Part shown: positions 6,996-11,715 of the stretch, piece after piece | How the letters are laid out: every line of letters begins with the position of its first letter | Position numbering within the stretch: position 1 is the first letter of the stretch | Source of the DNA: Candidatus Nanopusillus sp. | GTDB taxonomy: Archaea > Nanobdellota > Nanobdellia > Nanobdellales > Nanobdellaceae | DNA: 11,827 nt | Direction: 5' to 3' | NCBI GenBank assembly: GCA_036845085.1 | Contig: DAIUEN010000017.1 | Span: 1-11,827 of the forward strand | Program-made: the position numbers and the translations under genes | The notes under the pieces: model-generated | The model's input: only the letters and a program-made list of their open reading frames with translations | Told to the model about the DNA's origin: nothing | Databases searched by the model: none

Positions 6996-7832
6996 ATGGA
7001 AATAAGAAGAGTTAGAACATATATTCCAGGACTAGACGAAATATTATATGGAGGAATTCCAGAAAGAAATGTTGTATTATTATCTGGAGGACCTGGAACT
7101 GGAAAATCTATTATGGCAAAACAATTCTTATATAACGGTTTAATAAATGGGGAAAATGGACTTTTTGTTACATTAGAAGAGCATCCTATATCCGTTTTAA
7201 GAAGTTTTTCGCATTTTGGATGGGATGTATCTAAATTTGAAAAAGAAGGAAAATTTGCTATAATAGATGCTTTTACTGGAGGAGTTGGTGCTTATGCTCA
7301 AAAAGAAAAATATGTTATAAAAGATTTAAATGATCTTAGAGAGTTTATAGATGTTTTGAGAACAGCTATAAGAGAAATTAATGCTAATAGAGTTGTAGTA
7401 GATTCTGTTAGTACTTTATATTTAGCTAAACCAGCAGTAGCTAGATCTACTGTTATGACATTAAAAAGAGTATTAGCTGGTTTGGGATGTACTGCAATAT
7501 TTGTTAGTCAAGTATCTGTTGGAGAAAGGGGATTTGGAGGTCCTGGTGTAGAACATGCAGTTGACGGAATAATTAGATTAGATTTGGATGAAATAGATGG
7601 AAAATTATATAGATCTATAATTGTATGGAAGATGAGAGACACTAAGATATCTATGGTTAGACATCCTTTTGATATTACAGATAAAGGAATTATAATTCAT
7701 TGGGATAAATATCTGAAAATAAGTGGATATAGAGCAGAGATTCAACCTCTTCCAGAAGAAGACATAGAAAATATGAAAAAAGCTGTTAAAGAAAGTAAGA
7801 TTGCTACAGGAAGATATGAAGAAGATTTATAA
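6996..7832 (+). CDS. KaiC-like / RecA-superfamily single-domain ATPase (COG0467-type)
   Basis: 278 aa. Begins [39 protein letters not shown], with Walker A GGPGTGKS at nt 7086-7109. A Walker B-like [11 protein letters not shown] follows, then [12 protein letters not shown]...[12 protein letters not shown]...[15 protein letters not shown]...[13 protein letters not shown]. There is an acidic C-terminal tail. Confidence 0.85.
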
Positions 7833-8257: not shown

Positions 8258-8578
8258 TTATTCTATTTTTTCTACTTTTATATTTATATTTTCTTTACTA
8301 GTTTCTTCTCTTTTATTAGTTTCTTCTTCATGAGATTTTATAGAATATACTGCTCTAGAAACAATCCATATTTGCCCCATAGCTCTAATAAGCAAATGCT
8401 GCACTAATAATCCTTTTACACCTCTTCCTACAAGAGATGGATTTAATACTTTTATTTTCCAACCATATACTTTATTTCCTTCTATTACTGCATCTAGCAC
8501 TTCTCCTAATAGATACCCATCCTCCGTATATACTTTACTTCCATAAGTTTGGGATATCTTTTTTAAGTTAATAGCCAT
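8258..8578 (-). CDS. PRC-barrel domain protein with a charged C-terminal tail
   Basis: 106 aa. GSKVYTEDGYLLGEVLDAVIEGNKVYGWKIKV...GLLVQHLLIRAMGQIWIVS matches the small archaeal PRC-barrel pattern (G.kVy..dG..lG.V.D..id). The tail is HEEETNKREETSKEN. Family assignment is from memory of the motif only. Confidence 0.6.
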   Translation of the reverse strand: MAINLKKISQTYGSKVYTEDGYLLGEVLDAVIEGNKVYGWKIKVLNPSLVGRGVKGLLVQHLLIRAMGQIWIVSRAVYSIKSHEEETNKREETSKENINIKVEKIE

Positions 8579-8642: not shown

Positions 8643-11012
8643 ATGGTCGGCAATAATGATTCTAATAGAGTACCAGAAGTAAAATTAAAAGTTGCTGGTG
8701 CGTATCAGAATGATATTGGTAAAGGAATAGTAAGAATAGACGCAGAAGTTATGAGAAAATTAGGAATAAAAGTTGGAGACGTTGTAGAAATAGAAGGAAA
8801 AAGAAAAACTGTCGCTATAGCACAATTATCTTTACCTCAAGATGTTGGTTTAGGTATTATAAGGATGGATGTAACTGTAAGAAGAAATGCTGGTGCTACA
8901 TTCGGAGGATACGTTACTGTTAGAAAAGCAGAAGTAAAAGAAGCTTCAAGAGTAATCTTAGCTCCAGCTGTAAAGAATGTTACTTATAGTATACATCCAA
9001 CATATTTGAAAAGAATGCTTTTGGGAAGACCTCTAGTTAAGGGAGACTATATAGTAATATCTTTATCTTCTCTTTATGGTAAATATAGCCCATTTTCTGA
9101 AATATTTTCTATAGAAGACTTTTTTTCTTTTAGCTTTGGTGGTGAAATAAAATTGGTGGTTGTAAATACAAATCCTAAAGGAGCGGTAATAGTTACTGAA
9201 GAAACAGAGATAGAATTATTACCTCAAGCTCCAGAAATAAGAGAAGAAGTTCCAGAAGTTGGATATGAAGATATTGGAGGAATGGATGATGTAGTTAGAA
9301 AAGTAAGAGAAATGGTTGAATTACCTTTAAAACATCCAGAAATATTCGAAAAATTAGGAATTGAACCTCCAAAAGGTGTATTGCTATATGGTCCTCCAGG
9401 TACAGGTAAAACACTATTAGCTAAAGCAGTTGCAAACGAATCTGGAGCACATTTCATTGCTATAAATGGGCCAGAAATAATTTCTAAATATGTTGGAGAA
9501 TCTGAAAAGAAGCTGAGAGATATATTTGAAGAAGCTAGAAAAAATGCTCCAGCAATTATATTTATTGACGAAATAGACGCAATAGCACCTAAGAGAGAAG
9601 GAGATACTAGTGAAGTAGAGAGAAGACTTGTTGCTCAATTACTTACATTAATGGATGGATTAAAAGAAAGAGGTAAGGTAATTGTAATAGCTGCTACTAA
9701 TAGACCTGATGCTATAGATCCTGCATTAAGGAGACCGGGAAGATTTGATAGAGAAATAGAAGTTCCAGTACCTGATGAGGAAGGAAGGTATCAAATACTG
9801 AAAATACATACTAGAAAAGTTCCATTAGGAAAATTAGAAGGAGAAAAATATGTTTTATTATCTGAAGAAGAGAAAGATAAATTACTTAGGAAATTAGCTT
9901 CAATTACTTATGGATATGTTGGAGCTGACTTAGCAGCTTTAGTAAAAGAAGCTGCTATGAATGTAATCAGAAGATTAATACCAGAAATAGAAAAATATGA
10001 AGATAGAGAAATACCTACAGAGTTATATGAAAAACTTGTAGTTACGGAGGAAGATTTTATGGAGGCTTTGAAAATGATTCATCCATCTGCTATGAGAGAA
10101 GTATATGTTGAAGTTCCTAAAGTTAGATGGGGAGACATTGGTGGTTTGGAAGATGTGAAACAACAGTTAAGAGAAATAGTAGAGTGGCCAATAAAATATA
10201 AAAAAATATTCGAAAAATTAGGAATTGAACCTCCAAAAGGTGTATTGCTATATGGTCCTCCAGGTACAGGTAAAACACTATTAGCTAAAGCAGTTGCAAA
10301 CGAATCTGGAGCTAATTTCATTGCAATCAAAGGACCAGAAATATTTTCTAAATGGGTTGGAGAATCTGAAAGAAGAATTAGAGAAATATTCAGAAAAGCA
10401 AAACAAGTAGCCCCAGCAATTATATTTATTGACGAAATAGACGCAATAGCACCGAGGAGAGGTACTCATATTGGAAGCAACGTCTATGATACTGTAGTAA
10501 ATCAGCTATTAGCTGAAATGGATGGAATAACATCTAGAGGAGATGTAATGGTTATAGCTGCTACAAATAGACCAGATCAAGTAGATCCTGCTTTATTAAG
10601 ACCTGGAAGGTTTGATAGGATAGTATATGTCCCACCACCAGATTATAAGTCTAGATTAGAAATATTAAAAGTTCATACAAGAAATATTCCTTTATCATCA
10701 GACGTAAATCTAGAAGAAATAGCAAGATTAACTGAAGGATATTCGGGAGCAGATTTAGCATTACTAGTCAAAGAAGCTGCTATGTTTGAAATTAGAAAAA
10801 TATACGAACATTTATCTAAAGAAAGATTGACTGAAAAAGAAATAATGGATAAGCTTTTAGAGTTAGATATTAAAGTTACTATGGAAGATTTCAAAAAAGC
10901 TCTAGAAAAAGTAAGACCATCTATTACAAAAGAAATGGAAGAATATTATAAAAATTTTGCAGAAACATTTAGAAGAAAATATATAGAAGGGGATAGAAAA
11001 TATTATGGATAG
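8643..11012 (+). CDS. cdc48: Cdc48/VAT/p97-type AAA+ ATPase (N domain plus D1 and D2)
   Basis: 789 aa. The N domain reads [40 protein letters not shown]1 Walker A GPPGTGKT is at nt 9390-9413, with pore loop KYVGESE and Walker [14 protein letters not shown]2 Walker A is at nt 10254-10277, with pore loop KWVGESE and Walker [13 protein letters not shown]. The C-terminal tripeptide Y-Y-G is compatible with an HbYX-type proteasome-docking tail. Confidence 0.97.
9340..9589 (+). repeat. Intragenic direct repeat, copy 1 (cdc48 D1, Walker A to Walker B)
   Basis: Hand alignment at an offset of exactly 864 nt. 9340-9448 is identical to 10204-10312 (109/109). 9549-9589 is identical to 10413-10453 (41/41). 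The 100 nt between them differ at 27 positions, giving about 223/250 identity overall. Confidence 0.9.
10204..10453 (+). repeat. Intragenic direct repeat, copy 2 (cdc48 D2, Walker A to Walker B)
   Basis: Partner of 9340-9589. The offset of 864 nt is 288 codons, so the two copies are in the same reading frame. Confidence 0.9.
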
Positions 11013-11715
11013 GTATGTATCTCAATTTTTGTTTTTTAGAGATATAAATAGAAAAATATTTTCATCAACGGTTACAATTATAGGAATTGGAGGATTAGGT
11101 TCATATCTTTCTGAAATTTTGGCTAGAATGGGGGTAAAAAAAATTATCTTAGTAGATTTTGACAAAGTAGAAGAAAAAAACCTTAATAGACAAAACTTTA
11201 TCTTAGAAGATATAGGAAAATATAAAGTAGATGCTATAGAAAAAAGATTGAAGAGTATAAGGAATGATATAGAAATAGAGAAATACTTAGAAATAAATGA
11301 AAAAGTATTAGAATCTGATATGTTATTTGATTGTACTGATAATATAAATTCCAAATATTTAATAAACGAATTTTCTGTATATTTAGGAAAACCATACATT
11401 TTTGGTAGTGTAGTTATGGATAGAGGCTTTGTGGGTCTAATAAATCCAAATGAATTTTGCTTGTATGATATATATCTAGGAAAAGAAGATTTGATTTCTT
11501 GTGAAACAGCAGGAGTAGATCCATCATCTATATTATTTGCTTCTTCAATTATGGCGAAACTCTTTATTAAATATTTAGAAGGAGACAGAAATTCTGTAGT
11601 ATATCATTTTAATACTAATAAAAAATTTTACATAGAAGAAATAAAAGTTGTTAGAAGAGAATGTCCAATTTGTGTAAAAAAAGATTATAAATTCATATGG
11701 AAATATATGAAATAA
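11005..11715 (+). CDS. ThiF/MoeB/HesA-family E1-like adenylyltransferase (stand-alone, no rhodanese domain)
   Basis: 236 aa. Begins RYVSQFLF...VTIIGIGGLGSYLSEILARMGVKKIILVDFDKVEEKNLNRQ, with the nucleotide-binding GxGGxG at nt 11083-11103. A Cys-containing SCETAGVDPSSILFASSIMA region follows, and one CPIC zinc-type motif lies near the C-terminus. The ATG overlaps the cdc48 3' end by 8 nt. An SD-like AAGGGGAT lies at 10987-10994. Confidence 0.85.
   Translation: MDRYVSQFLFFRDINRKIFSSTVTIIGIGGLGSYLSEILARMGVKKIILVDFDKVEEKNLNRQNFILEDIGKYKVDAIEKRLKSIRNDIEIEKYLEINEKVLESDMLFDCTDNINSKYLINEFSVYLGKPYIFGSVVMDRGFVGLINPNEFCLYDIYLGKEDLISCETAGVDPSSILFASSIMAKLFIKYLEGDRNSVVYHFNTNKKFYIEEIKVVRRECPICVKKDYKFIWKYMK

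Follow-up and report, generated by a model that had tools for sequence, protein, structure and literature searches.

Gene conversion between prokaryotic paralogues has been documented for tuf, mtrA, amo and other genes (PMC6053082, PMC4632066). The archaeal list in the first of these sources contains seven genes, all from methanogens and without Cdc48, and it covers separate genes only. Conversion between the ancient paralogues RF1 and RF2 has been described as well (PMC4530459). Short discontinuous conversion tracts, some of them limited to a single marker, were shown experimentally in Sulfolobus (Grogan, PMC4471258). The locus described here is the cdc48 gene in a stretch of 11,827 nucleotides (nt) from Candidatus Nanopusillus sp. 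(contig DAIUEN010000017.1, assembly GCA_036845085.1), hereafter the window, in which parts of the two AAA modules, D1 and D2, match at every base. The D1 and D2 modules of Cdc48 are textbook ancient paralogues, and have been used to root and date AAA+ evolution.

The gene and the repeated segments within it are located as follows (window coordinates):

8643..11012, + strand: cdc48/VAT gene of 789 residues with an N domain, D1 and D2, from the open reading frame (ORF) list, Pfam and NCBIfam TIGR01243
9340..9448, + strand: tract A, D1 copy, 109 nt, encoding a 36-residue peptide and including the D1 Walker A (9390-9413); identical to 10204-10312
10204..10312, + strand: tract A, D2 copy, including the D2 Walker A (10254-10277); identical to 9340-9448
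9449..9548, + strand: unconverted middle of D1, with pore loop 1 SKYVG (9483-9497); 73/100 identities to its D2 counterpart
10313..10412, + strand: unconverted middle, D2 counterpart, with SKWVG (10347-10361); aligned to 9449-9548
9549..9589, + strand: tract B, D1 copy, 41 nt, encoding a 14-residue peptide with Walker B at 9555-9578; identical to 10413-10453
10413..10453, + strand: tract B, D2 copy, with Walker B at 10419-10442 and the D1-type residues APAIIFI; identical to 9549-9589

A sequence-only reading of this DNA had proposed that D1 and D2 are homogenised at the nucleotide level, and the observation itself was confirmed. Direct string comparison gave 109/109 matches between 9340-9448 and 10204-10312, and 41/41 between 9549-9589 and 10413-10453; the recount over 9340-9589 (223/250 identities) agreed exactly with the earlier one. 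The offset of 864 nt corresponds to 288 codons, and both copies lie in frame within the ORF. A repeat finder, separate from the string comparison, returned a 294-nt direct repeat with 86% identity and a spacing of 864. The identities were thus as described; however, the proposed single homogenised block of 250 nt was replaced by two discrete tracts, because the 100 nt between them are not homogenised and remain at background (14/20 codons the same, 11.1 expected; six synonymous and 13 non-synonymous codon differences). It had also been stated that most differences in the first half of this middle segment change amino acids. Non-synonymous differences are present there; but synonymous ones are about equally frequent. 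An antisense ORF (10079-10330, - strand, 83 residues, TTG start) overlies the repeat in D2; no Pfam family was found for it, and it is probably spurious.

The codon choice in the tracts was compared with chance expectation, and the expected codon matches were computed from the codon usage of the ORFs in the window. Of the 36 degenerate identical residues in tract A, 35 share the same codon (18.8 expected). The sole mismatch is GCA/GCT at 9447-9449, and its differing base, 9449, is just outside the tract; by chance, all 36 degenerate codons of tract A would agree with a probability of about 1e-10.7. Tract B uses the same codon at 13/14 such residues (7.7 expected). Taken together, the two tracts share 48/50 codons (26.5 expected), and the remaining D1/D2 alignment 54/95 (52.4 expected). 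The whole 250-nt block (62/70) differs from the rest of D1/D2 (54/95) with a Fisher's P of 1e-5. A null distribution of run length was obtained from 300 trials, in which synonymous codons were resampled from the gene usage while both protein sequences were kept fixed. The longest in-register D1/D2 run was 109 nt in the observed gene; whereas the null had a mean of 19.7 and a maximum of 41.

The comparison of codon matches also showed that synonymous identity is raised inside the tracts only, and the flanking D1/D2 alignment is at saturated background. The conserved peptides GDIGG and ATNRPD indeed use different codons in D1 and D2, as had been pointed out before. The permutation test (described below) and the resampling test, which were used in place of GENECONV or RDP-type programs, were both significant. 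An excess of synonymous identity that is confined to a tract with diverged flanks, and for which base composition or codon bias is insufficient, is the pattern of concerted evolution; codon bias does not account for the identity of the tracts. GC-biased conversion was considered separately and rejected, as no signal was seen in the G+C content at third codon positions (GC3; 0.08 in the tract vs 0.13 in the gene).

For the background, about 60 Cdc48-type genes of archaea and bacteria were collected by whole-protein scans of genome and metagenome contigs. Both scans were dominated by the ubiquitous IIFIDEID pattern and contained no close relatives, and the orthologues were retrieved by exact-protein look-ups. 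The D1 and D2 proteins share 29-58% identity in the background genes, and 61% in the window gene. The longest in-register D1/D2 runs of the background genes are 7-25 nt, the same as the null, despite equally conserved P-loop peptides. Six exceptions were found, all at the P-loop position: L087 (90 nt), L031 (47), L036 (34), L088 (33), L086 (29) and L018 (25). Four of them are metagenome-assembled genomes (MAGs) labelled Nanoarchaeota or Micrarchaeota, or cases of about 30 nt resembling them. The Cdc48 of L087 (Ga0256829_1000745) is 56% identical to that of the window, with 44% G+C and an unusual LLFGPPG in both modules. Conversion between D1 and D2 is thus sporadic elsewhere and persistent in Nanopusillaceae, because the background runs equal the null except in these six genes at the P-loop.

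The orthologue set comprised five further lineages, with loci L163-L168 among them, and all five are syntenic (S9, a small minus-strand ORF, cdc48, then thiF). The longest exact D1/D2 runs in the Nanopusillaceae orthologues are 93, 79, 79, 62, 41 and 41 nt; they are found in the same place, and each is above its own null. Two of these genomes are single replicons, Nanobdella aerobiophila AP019769 (669 kilobases) and strain YN1 AP031373 (773 kilobases), and the loci L165 and L166 belong to closed genomes. Strain YN1 was obtained as a pure co-culture and assembled from Nanopore and Illumina reads, and this hybrid assembly is behind L165 (PMC11420986). For comparison, an 84-nt P-loop core was defined; it encodes LGIEPPKG followed by V or I, 18 further residues, and a terminal N or T. 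The D1 and D2 cores are identical at 80/84 positions in Nanobdella (79-nt run) and at 78/84 in YN1 (41-nt run).

The copies of the core are grouped by genome. The D1-D2 differences within genomes are 0, 4, 0, 6, 4 and 8; whereas the mean differences between genomes are 13.9 for D1-D1 and 15.7 for D2-D2. The nearest neighbour is the own paralogue for all 10/10 core copies, and none of the 120 permutations gives a lower sum of within-genome differences than the observed 16 (mean 70). The adjacent 108 nt cluster by domain: D1 and D2 of a genome differ there at 29.8 positions, and orthologues at 18-19. The middle segment between the tracts also groups by domain and not by genome. The window and P0005 differ in the core by 14 synonymous changes, and 14/14 are common to D1 and D2. 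In Nanobdella, D1 and D2 alike read GGC ATA GAC CCA, and E is replaced by D in each of them; the V or I after PPKG likewise covaries between D1 and D2. The tract nucleotides themselves vary between lineages (12-21/84 differ), and they are closer only in the near-clonal pair L163/L165. The comparison of D1 with D2 in orthologous genes, which the sequence-only reading had recommended, thus gave P-loop copies that group by genome, including two closed genomes. These patterns indicate that short-patch gene conversion has recurred across Nanopusillaceae, independently in each lineage. The earlier proposal of a recent intragenic gene conversion was supported as to conversion, in favour of which its refutation tests came out; but one recent event of 250 nt does not fit, and the process is recurrent, patchy and family-wide.

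Some features are particular to the window lineage. Tract A of the window extends beyond its limits in most relatives, at both ends. The D2 module of the window has the D1-type F, L and ANESGA; whereas the D2 of P0004, P0007, Nanobdella and NZ13-N has Y, I or V, and ATE[IA]GA. Tract B of the window D2 similarly reads APAIIFI, against AP[ST][VI]IFF in the D2 of relatives. The D1-D2 differences in tract B amount to 1/42 nt in the window lineage and 7-13 in other Nanopusillaceae. The Walker-B tract, and the parts by which the P-loop tract is extended at its 5' and 3' ends, are lineage-specific or common only to P0005. At tract B and at the extensions the direction of conversion was probably from D1 to D2, which would have moved D1-type amino acids into D2. 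A D2-type Lys in D1 (EKLG) hints at the reverse direction.

Two near-clonal comparisons bear on how recent the exchange is. The independent Joint Genome Institute contig L001 (6,291 nt) encodes an identical Cdc48 protein and is 99.95% identical to the window, from which it differs at three positions. Within the gene the only differences are at 10238 and 10247, both synonymous sites in the D2 copy of tract A. L001 has the codons AAG/TTA there (Lys532, Leu535); whereas the window has AAA/TTG, which are the D1 bases. The two tract A copies make up 218 nt, and the probability that they contain at least two of the three L001 differences by chance is P = 0.0035. The perfect 109-bp identity thus holds in the window; but it is 107/109 in this sibling contig. 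The loci L167 and L168, which encode the same NZ13-N Cdc48 protein, differ at 29 positions in 3,406 nt, and 10/29 of these lie within the two 84-nt cores (168 nt; locus coordinates 1227-1310 and 2103-2186; P = 7e-7). One of the changes, CCC CCG to CCT CCA, is present in both D1 and D2. The final step to 109/109 is either a very recent conversion or smoothing by the assembler. More generally, conversion may be continuing among co-existing strains, or isolated variants between near-identical copies may have been smoothed. The homogenisation stands either way, because a collapse can create neither the pattern between species nor the identity in closed genomes.

The best explanation for the data is very probably recurrent, short-patch, non-reciprocal gene conversion between D1 and D2. 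The two modules, as direct repeats 864 nt apart, would recombine homologously with each other. Exchange would be seeded where amino-acid constraint keeps the modules alike, at the P-loop/Walker A and here also at Walker B, and each event would replace tens to about 100 nt of one module by the sequence of the other. Synonymous sites, together with some non-critical amino acids, would thereby evolve in concert within a genome and diverge between species. RadA-dependent repair with the paralogous module as template would be the pathway, and the process might be a neutral by-product and not adaptive. Such exchange would cover the observed identity, which is limited to two tracts with saturated flanks, as well as the clustering by genome, the D1-type residues in D2 and the concentration of strain differences in the tract. 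The tract borders fall at residues separating D1 from D2, for example the pore-loop Tyr vs Trp; therefore selection is suggested to remove conversions that reach functionally specialised positions.

Several points weigh against this explanation. The Lys of EKLG in D1 could equally be a simple point substitution. The direction and the number of events were deduced from the sequences of only five lineages. The exact 109/109 is not separable from assembler smoothing, given 107/109 in L001. In principle, the parallel L167/L168 differences could also arise if each assembler had collapsed slightly different copies.

The repeat could also serve unequal recombination between the modules. The deletion product predicted earlier, an N-D1/D2 chimera, was computed to be 501 residues long and in frame; a search with this chimera as query gave nothing below 754 residues among the best 120 matches, which is a weak test, as two-ring proteins outscore single-ring ones. 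The reciprocal product (+287 codons, N-D1-D1-D2) is present in public assemblies. Three such proteins were found: P0001 (1081 residues, a Ca. Nanopusillus MAG syntenic with the window), P0003 (1007 residues) and P0012 (993 residues). Their genes, from unrelated lineages, have a G+C of 32%, 42% and 60%, respectively, and contain perfect internal duplications of 882, 839 and 863 nt. D2-type sequence gives way to D1-type sequence inside shared P-loop blocks of 21, 20 and 44 nt, respectively. The genes are located at L002 3001-6246 (gene positions 723-1604 equal 1584-2465), L169 337-3360 and L170 165-3146, and a single contig is known for each. Most likely they arose as assembly loops in strain mixtures; they could otherwise be real, transient tandem duplications. 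A literature search on the origin of these assemblies gave no paper. The repeat had been called a hazard for assembly, and the N-D1-D1-D2 genes in public assemblies, as probable artefacts, bear this out. A bolder reading is that the P-loop repeat is an active recombination substrate, with the three-ring genes as genuine, high-frequency products of unequal recombination and with conversion as a built-in repair template for an essential ATPase motif in symbionts with tiny genomes; this is considered rather unlikely.

Homogenisation might also have proceeded through cycles of unequal crossing-over, in which an N-D1-D1-D2 or N-D1/D2 gene is formed and a second event restores two modules, leaving mosaic tracts behind. 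Both crossover products of an in-frame direct repeat keep the reading frame, and the duplication architecture exists in three lineages as a perfect internal duplication of 839-882 nt with the switch point inside shared blocks. However, two short discrete tracts around unconverted sequence, and a near-clonal difference of 10 nt, fit short-patch conversion better. The three-module genes, each from one contig, may be assembly loops; and in that weak search no single-module chimera was seen. The intermediates would also disrupt a presumably essential hexameric motor. Such cycles are therefore regarded as improbable.

An assembly artefact, by which a metagenome assembler collapsed or bubble-popped truly different copies onto one consensus, was judged slightly less probable again. 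The two synonymous D2 differences kept by L001 and lacking in the window, the parallel variants of L167/L168, and the three loop-like N-D1-D1-D2 genes joined via the P-loop repeat speak for such an artefact; the L167/L168 variants are of the kind that a collapse would give. However, a collapse erases only isolated single-nucleotide polymorphisms (SNPs) in near-identical sequence; copies differing at about 15/84 sites would not share k-mers. The effect is seen in YN1, whose genome comes from a clonal co-culture and was closed with long reads, as well as in Nanobdella, lineage-specific synonymous changes are common to both copies in every lineage, and even L001 retains 107/109.

Selection in place of recombination has little probability. 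It could act as codon preference at conserved residues, or through a nucleotide-level element (an RNA structure or a binding site) present in both modules. The genome is very AT-rich (27.7% G+C in the window, gene GC3 as given above), so that the chance of codon identity is high, 0.36-0.95 per residue, and the most conserved motif lies within the tract. Nevertheless, the codon-usage null is far exceeded, and ATNRPD, RPGRFDR and GDIGG are equally conserved with unmatched codons. The tract sequence varies across species, yet the two copies agree in every genome; no excess is seen in about 60 other Cdc48 genes that encode the same peptide, and Rfam gave no match.

The least probable alternative, double-strand breaks made by an intein homing endonuclease targeting Cdc48 and repaired from the paralogous module, agrees with an intein in D2 of the relatives P0021 and P0025 at VGE^SEK, within the 250-nt block, and with the identity of the target peptide VGESE and its 16 nt in both window modules; but it was rejected on tract geometry, since the site is surrounded by the unconverted middle and the identical tracts lie off-centre, 44-152 nt upstream and 42-82 nt downstream, and the window has no intein. 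The intein of P0021 (72% identical to the window protein) and P0025 contains a LAGLIDADG-type insert and lies beside pore loop 1; the equivalent window position is about 10359-10365.

The gene itself is normal and intact; it encodes a Cdc48/VAT AAA+ unfoldase of the double-ring type and belongs to an archaeon of the Nanopusillaceae (Nanoarchaeota). Pfam analysis of the 789-residue protein identified PF02359 CDC48_N (residues 14-97), PF02933 CDC48_2 (121-196), two PF00004 AAA and two PF17862 AAA_lid_3 domains. This is the architecture of the family, an N-terminal double-psi barrel and beta-clam followed by two classical AAA modules with lids. The protein scored 1139.3 bits with TIGR01243 (cut-off 802.65), covering residues 13-778. 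Walker A is located at residues 250-257 in D1 and 538-545 in D2, and Walker B at 305-312 and 593-600, respectively; pore loop 1 reads KYVG in D1 and KWVG in D2. The closest database proteins, with 70-75% identity, are from Nanopusillaceae/Nanoarchaeota. The C-terminus (...KYYG, 10998-11009) resembles the HbYX motif for docking of AAA unfoldases on the 20S proteasome.

The neighbours of cdc48 in the window are housekeeping genes, including those for two class II aminoacyl-tRNA synthetases, an HhH-GPD glycosylase, a dCTP deaminase, the ribosomal proteins L18e, L13 and S9, and a KaiC-like ATPase, together with a ThiF/E1-like gene immediately downstream:

11005..11715, + strand: ThiF/E1-like adenylyltransferase gene (Pfam ThiF), overlapping the cdc48 stop by 8 nt and outside the repeat

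The same arrangement, ThiF after cdc48, was found in L001, L002 and L163-L168. A small ORF without a Pfam family (100-114 residues; 8258-8578, - strand, in the window) lies on the opposite strand upstream of cdc48. All of the Nanopusillaceae loci examined have retained the ThiF gene and the small minus-strand ORF, and this points to a conserved cdc48-E1 unit. The KaiC-domain ATPase gene (6996-7832, + strand, TIGR03877 444 bits) is located between L13 and S9, likewise in L001; it is absent from the L002 locus, which is otherwise syntenic with the window. Rfam families and tRNAs were sought across the window and none was found.

The results mean that about 80-110 nt around the P-loop can evolve in concert long after the duplication of the modules. 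For AAA+ phylogenetics, motif-centred stretches of D1/D2 alignments can hold a within-genome signal and not a deep-time one. Conversion can also carry domain-specific residues between the rings, as in the D2 of the window. In practice, a short perfect in-frame repeat in a universal single-copy gene is an assembly hazard, and the P-loop repeat is plausibly responsible for the mis-assembled three-ring Cdc48 genes in public MAGs and for strain 'SNPs' concentrated at the motif. No report of D1/D2 conversion in Cdc48, VAT, p97 or AAA+ proteins was found in the open-access literature, which is not proof of absence. The case is a new example of a known process, a clean, family-wide intragenic concerted evolution between very early-duplicated modules; the conceptual advance is modest because gene conversion is already well known.

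Compared with its own family, the window protein shares the full double-ring architecture of Cdc48/VAT/p97; whereas the approximately 60 other Cdc48 genes, apart from the six exceptions, have no D1/D2 runs beyond chance. The tuf, mtrA and amo cases are similar to Cdc48 in that paralogues of one genome are closer to each other than orthologues of different genomes, the process has long recurred, and core housekeeping or complex-forming proteins are involved. They are, however, separate genes; whereas in Cdc48 the exchange takes place between two domains of a single polypeptide, over a tract as short as about 40-110 nt. RF1 and RF2 resemble Cdc48 D1 and D2 as paralogues older than the major lineage splits with exchange limited to conserved segments; but conversion there is intergenic, bacterial and sporadic, and in Cdc48 it is intragenic, family-wide and persistent. 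The conversion tracts of Sulfolobus resemble the two separate tracts of Cdc48 and the 10-nt strain difference. Sulfolobus is a crenarchaeon that was transformed with marked DNA in experiments; whereas the pathway in Nanoarchaeota is inferred.

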